Assembly: GCF_050920415.1 (NCBI RefSeq)
Contig: NZ_CP169309.1
DNA from: Escherichia coli
Lineage (GTDB): Bacteria > Pseudomonadota > Gammaproteobacteria > Enterobacterales > Enterobacteriaceae
Length of the DNA: 64,000 nucleotides
Strand: one strand, 5' to 3'
Shown: one piece after another, positions 4,736-49,186 of the stretch
Layout of the letters: each line of letters begins with the position of its first letter
Position numbering within the stretch: the first letter of the stretch is position 1
Notes under the pieces: generated by a model
What the model saw: only the letters and a program-made list of their open reading frames with translations
Databases searched by the model: none
Told to the model about the DNA's origin: nothing
Position numbers and translations under genes: made by a program

Positions 4736-5245
4736 ATGTACACTTCAGGCTATGCACATCGTTCTTCGTCGTTCTCATCCGCAGCAAGTAAAATTGCGCG
4801 TGTCTCTACGGAAAACACTACAGCCGGGCTTATCAGTGAAGTTGTCTATCGCGAAGATCAGCCCATGATGACGCAACTTCTACTGTTGCCATTGTTACAG
4901 CAACTCGGTCAGCAATCGCGCTGGCAACTCTGGTTAACACCGCAACAAAAACTGAGTCGGGAATGGGTACAGGCATCTGGGCTACCCTTAACGAAAGTGA
5001 TGCAGATTAGCCAGCTCTCCCCTTGCCACACTGTGGAGTCAATGGTTCGCGCTTTACGCACGGGCAATTACAGTGTGGTGATCGGTTGGTTGGCAGATGA
5101 TTTGACTGAAGAAGAGCATGCTGAACTTGTTGATGCGGCAAATGAAGGTAACGCTATGGGGTTTATTATGCGTCCGGTAAGCGCATCCTCTCACGCAACG
5201 AGACAACTTTCCGGGCTAAAAATTCACTCTAATTTGTATCATTAA
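4736..5245 (+). CDS. sulA: SOS cell-division inhibitor SulA
   Basis: ORF track starts at a TTG (4730); ATG at 4736 gives 169-aa [13 protein letters not shown]..., recognised as SulA. Confidence 0.9.
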
Positions 5246-19743: not shown

Positions 19744-20754
19744 TTAGATATGGTTAACGATTTCTTTAATCAGCGGCGGTCCTTTAAAAATAAAACCAGA
19801 ATAAATTTGCACCAGTGAGGCCCCCGCAGCAATCTTTTCACGCGCAGCGATAACCGAGTCAATGCCGCCAACACCGATGATCGGTAAGCGACCGTTTAAT
19901 TCCTGAGACAAACGGCGAATAATTTCGGTGCTTTTTAACTGTAGCGGACGACCACTTAAGCCCCCAGTTTGATCGCAATTTTTCATACCCTGTACCAAAG
20001 AACGATCGAGCGTGGTATTGGTTGCAATAACGCCATCAATATTATGGCGAACTAAACTATCGGCAACCTGGATCAATTCTTCTTCAGAAAGATCCGGCGC
20101 GATCTTCACTGCGATCGGCACATATTTATGGTGCATCGCTTGCAAATCATTTTGCTTATTTTTAATCGCGGTTAAGAGATCATCCAGCGCTTCGCCATAT
20201 TGCAGTGTGCGTAGTCCTGGGGTATTCGGCGATGAAATATTGATGGCGATATATCCCGCATAAGCATAGATTTTTTCCATACAAATCAGATAGTCATCTT
20301 TACCCTGCTCCACCGGCGTATCTTTATTTTTGCCGATGTTAATACCCAGGACGCCATCATAATGGGCTTTTTTTACGTTCTCTACGAGGTTATCAACGCC
20401 AAGATTATTAAAGCCCATACGGTTGATCAAACCTTCGGCATCTACCAGACGAAAGAGACGCGGCTTGTCATTACCTGGCTGTGGACGTGGCGTGACGGTA
20501 CCGATCTCGATAGATCCAAACCCCATCGCGCCTAACGCGTCAATGCACTCCCCGTCTTTATCAAGACCGGCTGCCAGACCAAGCGGATTTTTAAACGTCA
20601 GGCCCATGCAGTTAACAGGTTTCGCAGGCACTTTCTGCCGCACCAGTGCTTCAAACGGCGTTCCTGTAATACGGCGTAATTGCTGAAAAGTAAACTCATG
20701 AGCGCGCTCTGGATCGAGCTGGAAAAGGGCTTTACGAACGAAGGGGTAGTACAT
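19744..20754 (-). CDS. pyrD: dihydroorotate dehydrogenase (quinone)
   Basis: 336 aa from [21 protein letters not shown]... Confidence 0.95.
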
Positions 20755-20839
20755 GAACTCTCCTGGATTCCCGGTGTGCAAACCGGGGGCGTATTATGTG
20801 CGAGTTCGGACCAAAAGGGAATTGACCTGCGGCAAAAAA

Positions 20840-32248: not shown

Positions 32249-32445
32249 GCCGGATGTGGCGCACAAAACCAGCGGTTTCAACGGATTGTAGGCCTGATAA
32301 GACGCGTCAAGCGTCGCATCAGGCATTTGGGCACGGCTGCCGGATGCGGCGTGAACGCCTTATCCAGCCTACAAAACCAGCATTTTCAACGGACTTGTAG
32401 GCCTGATAAGACGCGTCAAGCGTCGCATCCGGCATTTGGGCTCAA
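32249..32445. repeat. REP/BIME cluster between convergent ssuB and pepN
   Basis: two near-identical ~68-bp units (32265-32332 and 32372-32441) separated by the REP-type sequence gccggatgcggcgtgaacgccttatccagcctac. Confidence 0.85.
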
Positions 32446-39974: not shown

Positions 39975-41165
39975 ATGTTTGAGAACATTACCGCCGCTCC
40001 TGCCGACCCGATTCTGGGCCTGGCCGATCTGTTTCGTGCCGATGAACGTCCCGGCAAAATTAACCTCGGGATTGGTGTCTATAAAGATGAGACGGGCAAA
40101 ACCCCGGTACTGACCAGCGTGAAAAAGGCTGAACAGTATCTGCTCGAAAATGAAACCACCAAAAATTACCTCGGCATTGACGGCATCCCTGAATTTGGTC
40201 GCTGCACTCAGGAACTGCTGTTTGGTAAAGGTAGCGCCCTGATCAATGACAAACGTGCTCGCACGGCACAGACTCCGGGTGGCACTGGCGCACTACGCGT
40301 GGCTGCCGATTTCCTGGCAAAAAATACCAGCGTTAAGCGTGTGTGGGTGAGCAACCCAAGCTGGCCGAACCATAAGAGCGTCTTTAACTCTGCAGGTCTG
40401 GAAGTTCGTGAATACGCTTATTATGATGCGGAAAATCACACCCTTGACTTCGATGCACTGATTAACAGCCTGAACGAAGCTCAGGCTGGCGACGTAGTGC
40501 TGTTCCATGGCTGCTGCCATAACCCAACCGGTATCGACCCTACGCTGGAACAATGGCAGACACTGGCACAACTTTCCGTTGAGAAAGGCTGGTTACCGCT
40601 GTTTGACTTCGCTTACCAGGGGTTTGCCCGTGGTCTGGAAGAAGATGCTGAAGGACTGCGCGCTTTCGCGGCTATGCATAAAGAGCTGATTGTTGCCAGT
40701 TCCTACTCTAAAAACTTTGGCCTGTACAACGAGCGTGTTGGCGCTTGTACTCTGGTTGCTGCTGACAGTGAGACCGTTGATCGCGCATTCAGCCAAATGA
40801 AAGCGGCGATTCGCGCTAACTACTCTAACCCTCCAGCACACGGCGCTTCTGTTGTTGCCACCATCCTGAGCAACGATGCGTTACGTGCGATTTGGGAACA
40901 AGAGCTGACTGATATGCGCCAGCGTATTCAGCGTATGCGTCAGTTGTTCGTCAATACGCTGCAGGAAAAAGGCGCAAACCGCGACTTCAGCTTTATCATC
41001 AAACAGAACGGCATGTTCTCCTTCAGTGGCCTGACAAAAGAACAAGTGCTGCGTCTGCGCGAAGAGTTTGGCGTGTATGCTGTTGCTTCTGGTCGCGTAA
41101 ACGTGGCCGGGATGACACCAGATAATATGGCTCCGCTGTGCGAAGCGATTGTGGCAGTGCTGTAA
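39975..41165 (+). CDS. aspC: aspartate aminotransferase
   Basis: 396 aa [36 protein letters not shown]... Confidence 0.95.
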
Positions 41166-41182
41166 GCGTTAAAAACAATGAA

Positions 41183-41207
41183 GCCCGCTGAAAAGCGGGC
41201 TTTTTTA
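41183..41207. terminator. bidirectional terminator between convergent aspC and gloC
   Basis: stem gcccgctgaaaagcgggc flanked by an A-run and T6. Confidence 0.8.
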
Positions 41208-41214
41208 TGCGCCT

Positions 41215-41862
41215 TTACCAGACGGGCATTTCGTCTTGCAGGAAGGGATTATGCAGGCGCTCATAACCAAGTGTGGATAATGGTCCGTGACCCGGAATAA
41301 ATGTCACATCATCCCCCAGTGGCAGCAATTTATCTTTGATTGAAGAAATCAGTTGATTATGATCGCCACGCGGGAAGTCACTGCGCCCTACTCCACCTTT
41401 GAAAATAACGTCGCCAGAAATCAGCAGCCTTGCCCGCTCATCAAAAAACACGACATGACCCGGCGTATGCCCAGGGCAATGTAACACCTGTAAAGTCACA
41501 TTCCCTATGCTGATGGTATCGCCTTCGTTCAGCCAACGATCTGGCGTCAGCGGCTGGCACTCTTCCAGACCAAACATACGACTTTGCGCAGGCAAGCCTT
41601 GCAGCCAGAACTCATCTTCTTTTTCCGGGCCAAAAACCGGCACGCCGTAATGTTGCACCAGTTCCGCCGCTGCGCCAACGTGGTCCAGATGACCATGAGT
41701 CAGCAGGATCTGCATCAGTGTCAGGCCGCTGGCATCAACTTCCTGTTTGATTTTTTCCGCATCGCCGCCAGGATCGACCAGTGCGGCCAGACGGGTTTGT
41801 TCACACCAGATCAATGAACAGTTCTGGGAGAATGCGGTGACCGGAATAATACGATAGTTCAT
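41215..41862 (-). CDS. gloC: hydroxyacylglutathione hydrolase GloC (metallo-beta-lactamase fold)
   Basis: 215 aa with THGHLDH motif. Confidence 0.9.
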
Positions 41863-41888
41863 ACTGCCCCTGTTTCGTTAAGCGATTA

Positions 41889-42437
41889 CTACCAGTGCCG
41901 TGCTGGCCCGGTATCAATATGCACAAAGTTACTACGTGGGTAATATCCTACACCACCTGCGCGCATAGATAACGCGGCTTTGCGAATATTGCTTAACGCG
42001 ATACCTTCAATGTGGAAATCCATCGCCTGGCCTTTAGTGTGATAGCTTTTCTTCGCTACTCCACGGCTGCGGGCGCGTAGTTCATTGTTGGTATCAATGG
42101 AACGATAACCGGAAATGAGTTGCACCGGTTTGCGGGTGCCTAACAACCCTTGCAGGCGATACAACTGGTCGAATAATCCTGGGTCGATGGACTTTATTTT
42201 GTTCGCGCGGTAATCGCGGAAAAAATGGTTAAGTTTTGCCAATTCTTCCTGAATATAGCCTCTGCCATCGAAAAACTCCGCTTTGATTGACTCTCCGGTA
42301 TGAAGATTATTGAGTGTCAAAATGCGCGGGCGTGGGGTCGAGAGTGTTGCAAACGCCGGGGTCGGCAGGATGGCGGCACCGAGTGCAACGCCACCAAGCG
42401 CCAGCAGTTTGCGGCGATTAGCGTCGAATTTGTCCAT
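41889..42437 (-). CDS. mepK: peptidoglycan L,D-endopeptidase MepK (YcbK)
   Basis: 182 aa from MDKFDANRRKLLALGGVALGAAILPTPAFA (twin-arginine-like signal); ORF-track TTG start at 42446 is an extension. Confidence 0.85.
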   Translation of the reverse strand: MDKFDANRRKLLALGGVALGAAILPTPAFATLSTPRPRILTLNNLHTGESIKAEFFDGRGYIQEELAKLNHFFRDYRANKIKSIDPGLFDQLYRLQGLLGTRKPVQLISGYRSIDTNNELRARSRGVAKKSYHTKGQAMDFHIEGIALSNIRKAALSMRAGGVGYYPRSNFVHIDTGPARHW

Positions 42438-42617
42438 GATAATCAAGTCTACAGGTCAATGTTATCGTTTATATGCACTTCTGGCGCACAAGAGGCACCT
42501 TAACCGCCCGTAAAGCAGACGTCAAGATGACTCAACCCCAGCAGTGACGGGGGCTGCAGAGAAGCGCCCCCGATCATGCTAATTATTACGACAACTGATT
42601 TCCCCGAACTGCTTCAT

Positions 42618-44465
42618 TTACCTGATTAATTGTTCCGCTTTCGATACGATTTGCGAGCTGGATCGCGCAGGCAGATCATAATTGTAAATATCTGTACGAT
42701 ACTGGGTACGACCATCTGCACCAACAAAGGCCGTCAGATAGAAGAGATTCACCGGAATCGACTGCCGAATATTGACGTAACGCGTATCGCCCTGCTTCAG
42801 CGCATCAGAAATACGTTTGTCATTCCAGCCTGCATCCTGCAACAGCATATTCGCCAGATCGGAAGCTTTATTCACTCGTACACAGCCTGAGCTCAATGCG
42901 CGTGTATCACGCTTGAACAGATTGTGGTTCGGCGTGTCATGCAAATAAATGGCCTCTGAACTCGGCATATTGAATTTATAGCGCCCCAGCGAGTTCCGTG
43001 GGCCTGGAGCCTGCTGGAAGCGGAACGGTAAATTCGAGGCCGTGATTGTAGACCAGTCAACCTGCCACGGATCAATCGCCTCCCTGCTGTTCCAACCGCG
43101 CATCACCGTATAGCCATGGCTTTCGAGATATCCCGGATCGTTGCGCACTTTCGGCAGAATATCTTTGCGTGCCAGAGTTGGTGGTACATTCCACGGCGGG
43201 TTTACCACCACGTTGTTAAGGGCACTGCTCATCATTGGCGTTTTGCGATCGGGGCGACCGACAATGACTCGCGAATCCAGCACCTGATTGCCGTTCTGAT
43301 AGTAGACCAGCGAATAGGCCGGAATGTTAACCATGATCCCGGTAGAAAGCTCTGTTGGCAGCAAGCGCAATCGCTGGATGTTGAGTGCCAACACGCCAGC
43401 ACGCTGGGCGGGCGTTACGTTTAACCAGTCACGCGTTGCCGGGCCAATAGCACCATCTGCCCCCAATCCTTGCCATGCCTGAAAACGTTTAACGGCTTCC
43501 ACCAGTTCATTATCGTAGGCGGCACGAACGACAGGCGCAGGTTTACTACGAGACGTAGTTTGCTTGTCCATCGGCTTAGTTTCTGCTGTTTCAACAGTAA
43601 CAGCGGATGGGCTGACTACCGCGTCAGTTGGCGTGTCATCGCCAGGTAGCGTAATTTTCGGCCCCCCGTCCAGCATGCCTGTACGCTGCAATATTTCGCG
43701 CAACGCCGGTACGTCGTTACTCCACTGCCCTGGGCGCAACGTTGCTTTGCCGGTCAGTTGGGGCCACGGTTTGGTGTCACTGAGTAAGGCCAGTAAAGAT
43801 TCATGCATCGCCGCATATTGCGGATGCTGCGGTGCCAGTCCTGCAACAAACGTCGGCAATTGACCTTTATCCAGCGCCAGCTGCCATTGGTTAATCACCG
43901 AGAGCGGCGGCGTGGAAAGCGCATAAGGTTTACTGCTGTATAACCAGCGAGTGCCTTTGACTGGAATATTTGCGATGAAATGGAGATAGCCCATCATCGC
44001 ATCAGAGAGCACCACATCGCGTGCCATCCCGTTAATACCAGGATCGGTCAGCAACTCTACCCATTTATTAAACTGCGGCTGGAAACCGGCAATCGCCACT
44101 TCTGCCAGCTGTTGCTGGAAGGCTTTAACAGCATCACGGTTTTCCCACATGGGTTGCATATCGCGTGCGGCATACAACAGTTGAAGCTGGTTAAGATAAA
44201 CCGGCTTATAGCCTGCAGGTAATTGAGATTCGATTTGCGTGCGGGCTTTTTCTGCCGCACCTTCAGGCAATGGCTGGATCCCCGCCATTATTGCCGTGGC
44301 CTGCGCCTGCGGCAGTGCCTCGCCCTGTTCGCTGACAGCCACCGGGCTGTCGCCAGGGATTACTTCAGGCTCATCGGCCTGAGCATTGAACAGTGGAGCG
44401 AATGTTACGGCCACGCACAAACTGATTGCCGACAGCCGACGACCACACATCATATTAAGCAACAT
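42618..44465 (-). CDS. ldtD: L,D-transpeptidase LdtD (YcbB)
   Basis: 615 aa with signal peptide; C-terminal YkuD-like region with catalytic-type Cys in SSGCVRV. Confidence 0.9.
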
Positions 44466-44687
44466 CCCTTGCCCCCTGTTTTTATCATACTCTGAATAGC
44501 CAGGCTGTTATTTTACGACTTGCCTGTACAACGCCAATACTCACGAAAGTATGACGAGCAAGCCTGTTACTCATCAGGCTTATCTTCAGTATATAAACGC
44601 CGATACGTTTTTACATAACCTAATGTAAAGAAGTTTAAAGAAAAGCGCGCCAGAATGTGGCACTTTTTTAGTGCAGAAACGGAGTTT

Positions 44688-44720
44688 TCAGAAACAGGAA
44701 AGGCGGCATCGCTGCCGCCT
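44688..44720 (-). terminator. probable terminator downstream of mukB
   Basis: hairpin aggcggcatcgctgccgcct immediately after the mukB stop, then a U-rich tract on the minus strand. Confidence 0.45.
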
Positions 44721-44725
44721 CAATC

Positions 44726-47700
44726 TTAACTCGCCTGGGAAGGCGCTTCGTCAGTTCCTGGAAGCGTTTCAGGGAGTTGCGGTGCAAAACCACGCAGACC
44801 GACTACGTGAACGTGTTCGGTATTCTGGAAGACTTTACGCACCAGTTTATAGGTGGTGCCTTTTTCCGGGCTGATATTTTCCGGCGCTGCGATGATGAGC
44901 TGCATTTGCAAACGCTCACACAATTCAAACAGCGTGGCGATGGAACGGGCATCCAGTCGCGCTGCTTCATCAAGGAACAGCAGACGGCAAGGAGAGATAT
45001 CTTTACCGCGCAAGCGGCGAGATTCATCTTCCCAACTCTGTACCACCATCACCAGAATCGACATACCGGTACCAATAGCCTCACCGGTCGACAATGCACC
45101 AGACTCCGCGCGCAACCAGCCATCGGAACCACGGTTAACCTCAACTTCCATTTCAAGATAGTTACGGTAATCCAGCAGTTCTTCACCGATGGTCTGCGGC
45201 GTGCGCTGCCCCATATCAATCTGCGGATTAAGGCGCTGATACAGTTTCGCCAGCGCTTCCGAGAAGGTCAGACGGTTGCTGTTAAACAGATCCTGATGTT
45301 GTTCGTGCTGTTCAGAGAGCACATCCAGCAGCATGGCGTGCGTTTCACGCACGTTCACGTTGAGGCGCACGCTGTTCACCTGACCGAACGATACGTTCTG
45401 CAAGCCCTGGTTGAGCATACGGATACGGTTCTGCTCGCGCTGAATAGTTTTACGGATGATGTTCGCCACGCTGCGGGAACTGATCGCCAGTTTCTGTTCG
45501 CGGGACGTTAACTCTTCAGTCAGACGGCTAAGTTCGATCTCCATCTGCTCGATAGCTTCAACCGGATCATCGGTACGAATAATATCCTGACGAATACGCT
45601 CGCGCAGATGCTGATAAACCGCCACGAAGAACTGAATTTTACGTTCCGGACGTTTTGGATCTTCCGACATACGCAGCACGTCGCGCAGATGTTCGTTATC
45701 CGCTACCGCGAGACGCAACGCACCCAACGCCTTATCCGACATGGAACGCAAATCATCAGCGGAGAGATAAGCCAGCTCACGACGGTGTAAGCGGCGCTCA
45801 ACACCGTTATCTTTCACCATGCGCATCACTGCACACCAGCCCGCTTTCGCGGTCACTACCTGCTCGCGCATCTCAAAGTAATCACGCTCCAGCTTGCGCA
45901 GTTTGCGGGTCAGGTTGTCCATCTCCGCTTCGCAGAAGGTAAGCGCTTTTTCCAGTTGGTTGCGACGTGAACGGTTATTGCTCAGCTGCGCATGTAACTC
46001 ATCACGGCGAATACGCGCCCGCTCTTCTGCCCCGCTATCAGCACGCACGCCGATATCCTGCAATTCACGTTGCAGATCGTTGAGTAGCTCTTTTTTGGTG
46101 TCATACGAACTTTTCAGCGAAGCCAGTACCTGATTGTACTGACTTAACTGCGCGGCGTGTCCGCGCAACGCTTCACGAGCGCGGGTACGCTCCGCTTCCG
46201 CCTGTTCCAGACGTTCACGCAGTTTTTCGTTGAGATCGCTGTTACCGCTAAGCATTTCTGCCGAGTCAGAGTAGCTAAAGTGCGCACGACGCTGCACCAC
46301 TTCCGTCAGGGCAAACGCCTGCTGACGGGCATCGCGCTGCATCTGCTGAGAGTACGCGTAATCTTCTTTTAACTGTTCGAACTGTTCCGGGTCACTCTGC
46401 AATACCGAAACGATCGGTTCCAGTTTCGCCAGTTGATTACCGAACTGCTGAACAAAACGCGCGGCTTCCTGGGCTTCATCCAGACGTTCGCGGATTTCAT
46501 CGACGCGATCCGCCAGGCTGTCATCAGCCAACAGGTTGAGACGCGGCAGAATGCGGTTCAGCGCCGTAACGCCTTCTTTCGCCTGCTCAAACTGAATACG
46601 CTGCTGCTGGTTATCATTTTCATGATTACTCAACGCCCGCTCCAGTTCGACGCGACGGCTGTTCAGTTGACGGATTTCGGCTTCCGGATCAGACTCAAAC
46701 GCCACCGCCAGATGGCTGCCGATAAAGCGGCTGAACGCCTGATGCAGACGCTGGGTTTTCTGTACATCAAAGGAGAGCGTGGCGAAGCGTTCGGAAAGCA
46801 CTTCACGCTCGGCATGGAGGCTTTCGATGCGGCTTTCGCGCGCCGCGCGTCCAAACAGCGGCACTTCCGGGAAACGTGAATAACGCCACTGACGATCGGC
46901 GATTTTCACCACTACCGCTTTTTCCAGCTCATCAACGCTGAACACGCTGTCATCGAATGACTGCGGATCCCCTTCGATCAGATAGAGATCTTCCGGGCAA
47001 TCGGTCAAGCCTTCCAGGTGTTCGGTTACCTGTGACAGATCTGGCACCACGATGGCGTGGCGTGACGGGCCATACAGCGCCGAGAAGTACGGCGCATCTT
47101 CCAGGCTAACATCGTCATAAATTTCTGACAGCAACACGCCGCCAAAACGCTCCGCCAGCGCATTCAGACGCTGGTCTTCAGAACCACCTGGCTGGCTTAA
47201 ACGTTCGATCTCTTCATCGACGGCGTTTTTGCGCGCGCCTACTTCATCGCGTTCAACAATCGCCTCGCGCTCACGCTCCAGCAACTGTTGCAGAAATTCG
47301 GTGACATCCTGGCTTGAGGAGAATTCTTCGCCGCACTGTTCGCTCAACTGGTTGAGACTGTTTTGCGCTGCCAGCCAAACCGGCGCACGCTGCATCAAAC
47401 TCTGAATGCGAGACTGCAGCTGTTCCTGCTCCTGGCGCAGTGCCATACGCTCTTCGCGGGCGTTAGACACGCTATTGGAAAGAGAGGCAATGCGCGCTTC
47501 CAGCTCCTGATGCAGAGCTTCCAGTTCATCAATATCAAAATTCTTGCCCTGACGTTTGCAGAAATCTGCCAGCAGACGCTCAGCTTCTTGCTGTTCGCGC
47601 AGACGCTGTTCCAGTTCGCTTAAGCGCATTCGCAACGGCTGAACCTGCTCTGCCAGGTGACGCTGATCGACCCCTTCGCGCAGCAGTTCGCGAGCGACAT

Positions 47701-49186
47701 CCCACGCCTCGTTACGCGCCAGCGGGCCGTTGATTGCCACCACCAGCTGATAAGCCTGCTCAAACTGGCTGTGCGCGGTTTGCGCCATGCTCATTTTCTG
47801 CTCAAGAGAGAGCATTTTTTCAGTCGCTTCCAGCTCTTTCGCCTGGAAGGTTTCCAGCCATTCGGCGGCGCTGTCGGCGGTTAAGTCCGGCAGATGGCAC
47901 AGTTCTTTGGCACGATTAAGCGCAGCAATCGCCTGGTTATACTGGATCGCGCGCGTTTGCTGGACGTCCAGCGCCTGCTGGTAGTCAGCAAGCTGGCTTT
48001 TCAGCTCGTCCACTTCCAGTTCGGCAGCTTCCGCACGAGCCTCATTCTCTTCCTGGCGTTCGATGGCTTCTGCCACCACTTCGTTTTGCTCTTCCAGACG
48101 GATCTGCAGCTCATCGAGATCCGCTTCGTAGCGTTCGATCTTCTCCTGCTGACGCAGTGCGGTTTGCACCAGGTTCAGGTGATCGCTGGCCGCCTGATAA
48201 TCCGCTTCCAGATCGCCTTCGGCACCGTTGTGCTCTGCCAGTTCACGCGCCATATCGACGTGTTTGTACTGCTCAGCCGCCAGTTGCTGACGCGAAGTGT
48301 GAAGCTCACGACGAAACTCCAGCGCTTTATCCAGGTGAACACGGCGCTCGTTGGCGTGGCGCATGTAGTCCGCCGCCACGTAGTTAGTCGCTTCGCTGAT
48401 CAGATGCTTGAACAAGTCACGGTCAGACTGGGTAACACGAATCGCTTCCAGCGTCATACGGTTTTCACGCAGCGCCGCTTCCATGTCCTGAAACGCTTTG
48501 CGCACGCCGCTATTTTCTGGCAACAGGTAGTCGCGCAGAGAACGGGTGATGGCGCTGGAAATCCCGCCGTACAGCGAAGCTTCAATCAGACGATAGAATT
48601 TACTACGATCAGACGCTGAGCGCAGACGACGTGCGATGATGCCCAGATCGAACATCAGCGAGTGGTAATCGGTAATGGAGTTGAACTGCTTAAACTGCAC
48701 GCCTTCCATCGCTTCGAGCTTGTCTTTCAGCTCGTTAAGCGGGAGCACGCGCGCCTGACGTTCATTCAGAGTTTCGGTCACCAGTTGTGTCGGCTGCACC
48801 GACATCGGCAAGCCCTGAATGGCAAATGGTTTGATATCAACTTTACGATCGCGCCCGGCAACCTGTTGCAGACGCACGCCGACCACCACGCGCTGATGGC
48901 GCGAGTTAATGGTGTCGAGCATCGAATAGCAGACACCCGCTTTCAGCTTACCGTGCAGACCTTTATCGCGCGAACCGCTGGTGGCCCCGGCTTCCGTGGT
49001 GTTACGGAAATGCAGCAGGGTCAGGTCGGGGATCAGCGCCGTAACGAACGCCGCCATGGTAGTAGATTTACCCGCACCGTTACCACCGGAGAGCGTCGTA
49101 ACCAGCTCATCGAGGTCAAAAGTTCGGGCAAAAAAGCCGTTCCAGTTAATCAGCGTCAGTGAGCGAAATTTACCGCGTTCAATCAT
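44726..49186 (-). CDS. mukB: chromosome partition protein MukB (SMC-like condensin)
   Basis: 1486 aa with N-terminal Walker [10 protein letters not shown] and long coiled-coil-type sequence. Confidence 0.95.

Follow-up and report, generated by a model that had tools for sequence, protein, structure and literature searches.

The genes for an L,D-transpeptidase that makes 3-3 cross-links in peptidoglycan (ldtD) and for an endopeptidase that cleaves them (mepK) lie next to each other and in the same orientation in Escherichia coli, with gloC following, which raises the question of whether the maker and the breaker are expressed together or controlled separately, and whether their adjacency carries any meaning. 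We have addressed this question in a 64,000-nt stretch of E. coli DNA, hereafter the window. Gene identities, geometry, conservation and synteny were computed, and enzyme activities, synthetic lethality and induction by Cpx and sigmaE are taken from papers. The genes and their functional link have already been published, so that the locus as annotated is correct but ordinary; what our analysis adds beyond the published biology is the position of a hairpin and a promoter footprint in the spacer between ldtD and mepK, together with the recurrence of this gene pair in distant contexts.

Gene identities and conservation of the locus

The initial annotation named the three genes ldtD, mepK and gloC and placed them in a common orientation. 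Open reading frames, Pfam and NCBIfam models and RefSeq names confirm these identities, and all three genes lie on the minus strand (Table 1). The 180 bp given for the ldtD-mepK spacer are exact (42438-42617), and the gap between mepK and gloC is 26 bp. The locus is flanked by mukB on one side and by the convergent aspC on the other. One E. coli chromosome matches the stretch at 100% identity, and in the 100% identical record NZ_CP169399 the RefSeq annotation reads ldtD, mepK and gloC. In a mechanical list of reading frames mepK starts further upstream, with a TTG at 42446; this codon is unconserved, whereas the ATG at 42437 is invariant across 22 genera, and the annotated start and the spacer length therefore hold. 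Strain K-12 has the same gene order, orientation and spacer length (ldtD, b0925; mepK, b0926; gloC, b0927), with a nucleotide identity of about 97-98% that represents normal strain divergence. A search for repeats in the region returned short chance matches only.

Table 1. Positions in the window of the genes and sequence features of the ldtD-mepK-gloC region
Feature	Position	Strand	Description
Terminator after gloC	41181-41202	minus	intrinsic; 9-bp stem with 6 GC pairs, then CATTGTTTTT
gloC	41215-41862	minus	215-aa ORF
mepK	41889-42437	minus	182 aa, counted from the annotated ATG
Small leader hairpin	42473-42489	minus	conserved; GTGCGCCAGAAGTGCAT, in the predicted mepK 5' leader
Candidate mepK-gloC promoter	42525-42497	minus	-35 TTGACG (42525-42520), 17-nt spacer, -10 TAAGGT (42502-42497)
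GC-rich hairpin	42572-42548	minus	CGGGGGC-N11-GCCCCCG, ldtD 3' region
ldtD	42618-44465	minus	615-aa ORF
Two overlapping sigma70-like candidates	44484-44537	minus	TTGGCG-16-TAAAAT and ATAACA-16-TATGAT
CpxR-box-like candidate	44625-44639	plus	GTAAAGAAGTTTAAA, 1 mismatch to GTAAA-N5-GTAAA

Of the 5426 complete E. coli genomes, all but two (5424) have this locus. Among the best 80 related loci obtained with an 8-sequence alignment as the query, all of which are from Enterobacterales, the order mukB-ldtD-mepK-gloC/aspC is retained in every locus with sufficient flank.

The two cell-wall enzymes

LdtD (YcbB) is an L,D-transpeptidase that scores 1196.7 bits against the NCBIfam equivalog NF007891 (cut-off 425) and contains a YkuD domain (PF03734, 92.6 bits, cut-off 23.4) together with Scaffold (PF20142, 64.2 bits) and PG_binding_1 (PF01471, 39.3 bits) domains. 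The catalytic Cys528 is present within SSGCVRV, and the protein matches the YcbB structure 6NTW in the PDB with E=0. Comparison with K-12 LdtD shows 7 substitutions among the 615 residues (608 identical). Papers report that LdtD makes 3-3 cross-links, and together with this near-identity they suggest that the LdtD of the window forms 3-3 (mDAP-mDAP) cross-links as well.

MepK (YcbK) is 100% identical to K-12 MepK, the K-12 proteins being those used in the published biochemistry, matches Peptidase_M15_2 (DUF882, PF05951) with 206.1 bits (cut-off 27) and passes the NCBIfam equivalog NF053624 (274.9 bits, cut-off 185); a comparison with solved structures found no relative. The zinc-ligand/catalytic residues H133, D140 and H173 are invariant among 40 homologues down to 41% identity and are found in the MepK of the window, and an H133A protein has been reported inactive. 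At its N-terminus the protein has MDKFDANRRKLLALGGVALGAAILPTPAFA, the same sequence as the listed Tat signal, with the twin-arginine signal MDKFDANRRKLL...AFA, of which R9 is invariant and R8 is found in at least 90% of the sequences in the homologue alignment. Thus, the MepK of the window is predicted to be a Tat-exported zinc L,D-endopeptidase, and papers likewise cite MepK as a zinc-dependent Tat substrate and 3-3 DAP endopeptidase. Homologues of 600-730 aa, considered as MepK-LDT fusions, were rejected as such, having only the M15 domain of Pfam and low-complexity tails.

That MepK acts on 3-3 cross-links, a point on which the initial annotation depended, is borne out by open-access papers, which describe cleavage of mDAP-mDAP (3-3) cross-links with marked preference. 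A dual activity, on 4-3 as well as 3-3 links, has also been described for MepK. The original report, Chodisetti and Reddy 2019 (PNAS), is represented here through papers that cite it, and this literature states that production of YcbB/LdtD is lethal in a mepK deletion. Most of the muropeptide analysis of ldtD, mepK and double mutants that the initial annotation suggested is likewise in print. The description of LdtD and MepK as antagonistic is apt for their chemistry, which is opposite, but not for their physiology, in which they cooperate, because cells with abundant 3-3 links need 3-3 cleavage in order to grow. A similar relation is found between MepS, MepM or MepH and the PBPs, where new material can be inserted only if cross-links are cleaved, and MepK has the same role for the 3-3 links of LdtD. 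The genes of the 4-3 endopeptidases have not been reported beside those of their PBP partners, whereas mepK directly adjoins the gene of its matching transpeptidase, an arrangement that recurs in distant relatives.

A hairpin and a promoter footprint in the spacer

Downstream of ldtD the spacer contains a GC-rich hairpin, the extended stem of which covers 42581-42539. We found a hairpin in all 79 Enterobacterales spacers, which range from Escherichia to Serratia, Pectobacterium and Erwinia. The segment from the ldtD stop to the -35 box measures 81-114 nt (mostly 90-93 nt), the hairpin starts 34-45 nt past the stop in most of the spacers, its dG runs from -10.6 to -31.1 with a median of -21, and the segment has a median z-score of -2.38 against shuffled controls. 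The stem sequences diverge between spacers, and it is the hairpin structure that is conserved. RNAalifold returned no consensus structure from the 22-genus spacer alignment because the hairpins are out of register in it, and per-sequence hairpin searches and shuffles were used in its place. No RNA family was detected in the spacer by Rfam scans of the region (E<=1) or of the whole window (gathering score). In several genera the hairpin is bordered by A and U tracts and has the full form of a terminator. The E. coli hairpin is terminator-like but without a U tract (tail TCACTGCT), and for this reason it may terminate poorly and let ldtD transcripts read through. On balance, the hairpin probably limits read-through from ldtD.

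The spacer also carries a promoter-like footprint, TTGAC[G/T]-N17-TA[A/T][G/T]GT, which we found in every spacer (79 of 79) with a spacing of exactly 17 nt, although the surrounding alignment has a mean column identity of only 60%. The predicted transcription start lies near 42490, which by way of the 180-nt spacer corresponds to about 983,021-983,024 in K-12. The -10 hexamer is a weak match, with 3 of 6 consensus bases, which is why a generic promoter scan missed the footprint. The small hairpin of the predicted leader falls in a conserved alignment block and is paired in the MFE fold. Between K-12 and the window 3 of the 180 spacer bases differ; one of these changes (C to T) falls at the base of the hairpin stem, and the promoter footprint is unchanged. 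We infer from these sequence data that the footprint is probably an active mepK promoter.

Control of ldtD and mepK

Papers describe ldtD as Cpx-induced, and the Cpx studies list ldtD without mepK; the primary paper on CpxR and ldtD, Bernal-Cabas 2015 (J Bacteriol), enters here by way of papers that cite it. About 160 nt 5' of the ldtD ATG we found a CpxR-box-like sequence, overlapped by a 2-mismatch match. In a pattern search GTAAA-N5-GTAAA with at most one mismatch has only 9 matches in the 64 kb, and matches with up to two mismatches are barely above chance over the whole window. This putative CpxR box is consistent with the published Cpx control of ldtD. The number of sigma70-like matches in the region does not exceed that in shuffled sequence, so the matches upstream of ldtD are candidates only.

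For mepK and gloC the literature points to sigmaE. A table of sigmaE-induced genes lists ycbK-ycbL as a single unit, induced 9.7- and 6.6-fold, without ldtD, and a Salmonella sigmaE ChIP-seq peak has been reported at ycbK. The sigmaE consensus GGAACTT-N16-TCAAA has no exact match in the window and no good match in the spacer, and a search of 41100-44800 gave nothing above background. The best sigmaE-like match (10/12) is located inside ldtD at 42997-42969, at background frequency and in conserved coding sequence. Judged by its sequence, the invariant spacer promoter is unlike a sigmaE promoter. Since the spacer has no sigmaE consensus, the reported sigmaE dependence is unexplained by the footprinted promoter; it could be indirect, or could act through a promoter of unrecognised form.

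The suggestion in the initial annotation that ldtD and mepK may be separately regulated is therefore supported by the units described in the literature and, in the spacer, by the hairpin and the invariant promoter-like footprint. The region is a core chromosomal ldtD / mepK-gloC locus that in Enterobacterales very probably comprises two transcription units. The first, ldtD, would be driven from the mukB-ldtD intergenic region, which is Cpx-inducible according to the literature, and would end at the conserved hairpin. The second, mepK-gloC, would be driven by the invariant sigma70-like spacer promoter, reported to be sigmaE-inducible, and would end at the terminator shared with aspC. LdtD would make mDAP-mDAP (3-3) cross-links, and MepK, exported folded with zinc via Tat, would hydrolyse them and thereby keep a 3-3-rich sacculus able to expand.

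An alternative is that ldtD, mepK and gloC form a single operon, in which the spacer serves only for internal processing or attenuation and the maker and the breaker are always co-expressed. The common orientation of the genes, the missing U tract of the E. coli hairpin, distant LDT-MepK spacers of only 35-66 nt without a promoter motif and a distant locus in which mepK and gloC overlap in an operon-like manner all agree with it. We nevertheless consider it unlikely, given that a promoter-like footprint with a fixed 17-nt spacing occurs in every one of the Enterobacterales spacers, that the hairpin takes the full A-tract/U-tract terminator form in several genera, and that the sigmaE table and the Cpx studies each name one side of the spacer without the other.

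gloC and the end of the probable second unit

The metallo-beta-lactamase fold attributed to GloC (YcbL) is correct, with 141 bits to Pfam Lactamase_B (PF00753) and the HxHxDH motif present as THGHLDH. GloC differs from its K-12 counterpart at 5 of 215 residues (210 identical). It falls below the cut-off of the GloB equivalog TIGR03413 (111.2 vs 200.8 bits) and is a shorter paralogue distinct from GloB. Between mepK and gloC there is no terminator-like site, and a strong one follows gloC. The convergent aspC shares this terminator back-to-back, and after aspC the plus strand reads GCGGGCTTTTTTATG; a sub-threshold Rfam match to Trp_leader at 41131-41208 corresponds to the same gloC/aspC terminator. 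K-12 carries a 172-nt REP/BIME insert inside the terminator, whereas the window has none.

It could be argued that gloC works within the cell-wall module, acting for example on a peptidoglycan-derived or beta-lactam-like substrate, rather than a glyoxalase passenger. The MBL fold, the sigmaE co-induction with mepK, the short distance of 15-110 nt between mepK and gloC in all Enterobacterales loci, and distant loci in which a GloC homologue directly follows MepK (L086 and L091, the two genes overlapping in the latter) or lies nearby (L082) are in line with this idea. Yet the GloC translation has no signal peptide, so GloC is expected to be cytoplasmic and MepK periplasmic, RefSeq and the literature class GloC as a glyoxalase II, and GloC is absent from most distant MepK contexts, all of which makes such a role very unlikely.

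Distant relatives and a possible origin of the spacer

Among MepK homologues with 42-56% identity, a small sample with 10 informative contexts, five have a YcbB-type LDT immediately 5' of MepK, and the other five have no LDT upstream. Loci L091, L083, L092 and L093 resemble E. coli in that a same-strand YcbB-type LDT (Scaffold, PG_binding_1, YkuD) is immediately 5' of the Peptidase_M15_2 gene. The other neighbours of distant LDT-MepK loci vary and include imelysin/DUF1513, spermidine synthase/TANGO2 and mukB. The distant spacers are often 35-117 nt long and lack the TTGAC-N17-TAAGGT motif, and the Enterobacterales differ from these four loci in having a cassette, about 180 nt long, that includes a hairpin and a promoter. 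The ldtD-mepK gene pair is thus far older than the Enterobacterales, and its adjacency is not a matter of chance, since it is near-universal in E. coli, present in all Enterobacterales loci with sufficient flank and found again in half of the informative distant contexts. That the cell-wall genes are neighbours by happenstance of inherited synteny, without functional meaning, is a very unlikely explanation: the whole mukB-aspC block is syntenic in Enterobacterales, so that order alone does not prove selection on the pair, and half of the informative distant homologues have no upstream LDT, but the pair recurs next to differing neighbours and the lethality of LdtD without MepK is a direct genetic interaction.

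With regard to the two-unit arrangement in Enterobacterales, we speculate that an ancestral, tight ldtD-mepK(-gloC) operon, of which the distant loci with spacers of 35-117 nt would be survivors, was split there by a cassette of fixed geometry, which would let Cpx raise cross-linking alone. The proposed cassette would consist of about 92 nt with the terminator hairpin, then the TTGAC-N17-TAAGGT promoter and lastly a leader some 57 nt long. This proposal is tentative, and we hold it to be possible rather than probable. With a split of this kind Cpx could increase 3-3 cross-linking but not 3-3 cleavage and, if true, such uncoupling would explain the LdtD-dependent toxicity of Cpx over-activation.

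As already published, the LdtD/MepK pair underlies PBP-bypass broad beta-lactam resistance and envelope-stress wall remodelling. To this our study makes a small addition, namely sequence evidence suggesting that a conserved hairpin and promoter insulate ldtD from mepK across Enterobacterales. The -10 box and the GC-rich hairpin (Table 1) offer precise targets for work on the balance between the making and breaking of 3-3 cross-links.

The ldtD, mepK and gloC locus

The initial annotation described ldtD and mepK as neighbours in the same orientation, separated by 180 bp (42438-42617) and followed by gloC, and the ORFs and the RefSeq annotation of an identical record confirm that this description is exact. 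This 3.7-kb stretch shows 100% identity to E. coli NZ_CP169399, in which the RefSeq gene names ldtD, mepK, gloC and aspC fall at matching positions; the gap between mepK and gloC is 26 bp. Of 5426 complete E. coli genomes, 5424 carry the region, with one lacking it and another holding just part of it, and five matches to it lie on plasmid-labelled records. The DNA of the window and that of K-12 diverge by about 2-3%, as is usual between strains. Unlike K-12, which carries a 172-nt REP/BIME-type insert flanked by duplicated AGCCCGCTTTT within the gloC/aspC bidirectional terminator (4799-5019 of the K-12 locus, L095), the window has the bare terminator (41166-41214). Two Rfam matches above the gathering score, a PyrD leader (20749-20822, minus strand, 97.9 bits) and naRNA4/CssrE (32291-32369, minus strand, 82.2 bits), lie outside the locus and are usual in E. 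coli.

Features of the locus and its flanks
Feature	Coordinates	Strand	Remark or basis
mukB	44726-49186	minus	upstream neighbour of ldtD
Candidate CpxR-box-like sequence	44625-44639		about 160 nt ahead of ldtD ATG; one mismatch to consensus
ldtD	42618-44465	minus	615-aa ORF
ldtD-downstream hairpin	42572-42548	minus	tail TCACTGCT
Candidate mepK-gloC promoter	boxes 42525-42520 and 42502-42497	minus	pattern conserved in spacers
Short conserved hairpin, predicted mepK leader	42489-42473	minus	conservation in alignment
mepK	ORF 41889-42446; annotated ATG at 42437	minus	ORF list; 182 aa from ATG
gloC	41215-41862	minus	215-aa ORF
Strong terminator after gloC	41202-41181	minus	same scan as for mepK-gloC gap
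aspC	39975-41165	convergent	downstream of gloC; ompF, then asnS beyond

LdtD (YcbB), the L,D-transpeptidase that forms 3-3 cross-links, carries Scaffold, PG_binding_1 and YkuD domains, passes its equivalog model (1196.7 bits; cut-off 425), matches the solved YcbB structure 6NTW and retains Cys528. MepK (YcbK), the L,D-endopeptidase that cleaves these links, shows Peptidase_M15_2/DUF882 at 206 bits, passes its equivalog model (274.9 bits; cut-off 185) and is 100% identical to K-12 MepK. It has H133, D140 and H173, all invariant among 40 homologues, and its N-terminus has the twin-arginine signal that the literature gives for YcbK; a sequence search found no solved structure of any MepK relative. 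In GloC the MBL fold scores 141 bits and the THGHLDH motif is present; its score against the GloB equivalog model falls short of the cut-off, in keeping with a shorter paralogue. Many MepK-family proteins are 540-730 aa long (P0028, P0038, P0042, P0045 and others), with an N-terminal M15 domain followed by a tail of 400-500 aa, which in P0028 is rich in Ala, Ser, Pro, Thr, Gln and Gly. These tails have no Pfam match, and the proteins are not L,D-transpeptidase fusions.

The ldtD-mepK spacer in Enterobacterales

We fetched 80 MepK-encoding loci, one genome per species; these best 80 were all from Enterobacterales, with genera from Escherichia to Yersinia, Serratia, Pectobacterium, Brenneria and Erwinia. 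All loci with sufficient flank retain the order mukB-ldtD-mepK-gloC, with aspC convergent. Identity to the window protein is 54-94% for LdtD versus 77-98% for MepK, 82-99% for AspC and 79-99% for MukB, so that LdtD diverges much faster than these neighbours.

The spacer is 167-188 nt long in 65 of 78 loci, and its alignment across 22 genera shows a mean column identity of only 60%, with an invariant TTGAC followed 17 nt on by TAAGGT or TATGGT. Each of the 79 spacers (78 loci and the window) contains the pattern TTGAC[GT]-N17-TA[AT][GT]GT, always with 17-nt spacing and usually 54-66 nt ahead of the mepK ATG; in the longer spacers of Salmonella, Klebsiella and others, the additional DNA sits between this motif and the ATG. 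A generic promoter scan missed the site because TAAGGT fits only three of six consensus positions.

The ldtD stop and the -35 box are separated by 81-114 nt (90-93 nt in most), and this segment contains a stable hairpin in every species (dG -10.6 to -31.1, median -21 kcal/mol). The hairpin begins 34-45 nt past the stop in most species; its stem sequences differ, and in several genera it is built like an intrinsic terminator, with an A-tract, a stem and a U-tract. For most species the segment forms a more stable fold than its dinucleotide shuffles (median z -2.38), and the whole E. coli spacer gives z = -4.16. Since the tail of the E. coli hairpin is TCACTGCT, termination there may be leaky. 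Our scan of the region revealed no terminator-like site between mepK and gloC.

There is no recognisable Shine-Dalgarno sequence just upstream of the mepK ATG (42438-42460, minus strand). A block, CTGTAGACCTGATTATC, upstream of this ATG is conserved in most Enterobacteriaceae aligned, and the window reads ...GACTTGATTATC. Unlike mepK, gloC has GGGG 7 nt ahead of its ATG.

Published sigmaE and Cpx control and candidate sites

[quoted passage not shown] In a published list, ycbK-ycbL (mepK-gloC) form a single putative operon whose induction upon sigmaE overproduction was 9.7- and 6.6-fold; that entry is marked as seen in two earlier studies too and does not include ldtD. A sigmaE ChIP-seq peak has been reported at ycbK in Salmonella. 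The literature thus bears out the suggestion of the initial annotation that the two genes may be separately regulated. The CpxR-box-like sequence ahead of ldtD, identified by consensus match, fits the published Cpx control. A search for the sigmaE-type motif GGAACTT-N16-TCAAA found no such promoter in the spacer. The best match in 41100-44800, GGAACTC-N17-TCAAT (10/12; 42997-42969, minus strand), lies inside ldtD, in conserved sequence that encodes YkuD and about 530 nt ahead of mepK, and 10/12 matches occur at chance frequency (35 in the window, both strands). The TC of the sigmaE -10 element is also missing from the footprinted promoter, so the features recognised here do not explain the published induction; it may be indirect, or may act through a promoter departing from consensus.

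The gene pair beyond Enterobacterales

We examined the contigs of eleven MepK homologues with 42-56% identity to the query, and the upstream neighbour was visible in ten contexts. In five of these (L082, L083, L091, L092 and L093) a YcbB-type L,D-transpeptidase gene, called by Scaffold, PG_binding_1 and YkuD domains or by a tblastn match to LdtD, lies directly upstream on the same strand. Simple block synteny does not account for this, since the other neighbours vary among the five. Four have spacers of 35-117 nt without the promoter motif, including L091, where the order is mukB-ldtD-mepK-gloC, the spacer measures 35 nt and mepK overlaps gloC; L082 has a 240-nt spacer with its own hairpin and a TTGACC-N17-TAAAGT motif. 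The gene directly after MepK encodes a GloC homologue in L086 and L091, and in L082 a GloC homologue is 3 kb off. In one distant lineage (L089/L090, 2778-4543) the MepK homologue directly follows a class I/II aminotransferase gene and precedes rpsU, with bactofilin genes near and no L,D-transpeptidase gene nearby. This small sample of ten contexts indicates a recurrent maker-breaker pair that resembles an operon in some lineages, whereas in Enterobacterales a terminator-promoter cassette splits it.

Discussion

From the conservation of the hairpin and the promoter footprint, we infer that the locus most likely comprises two transcription units, one for ldtD that ends at the hairpin and one for mepK-gloC that starts at the predicted promoter. 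The functional pairing of LdtD and MepK, their separate regulons, locus, activities and genetic interaction are already published; this study adds only the conservation of a hairpin and a promoter footprint and the finding that the gene pair is more widely distributed. The idea that MepK does not act on 3-3 links is contradicted by published papers, which report, repeatedly, that this cleavage is essential when such links are abundant. The two enzymes had been called antagonistic, which holds for the opposite reactions they catalyse but not for their physiology, where they cooperate, since cleavage of 3-3 links lets the LdtD-cross-linked sacculus grow. Over-activation of Cpx is reported to cause growth and shape defects that depend on LdtD, and we suggest that this toxicity fits an imbalance between making and breaking links. 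Separate control of the two units would enable the cell to tip this balance in favour of cross-linking during Cpx stress.
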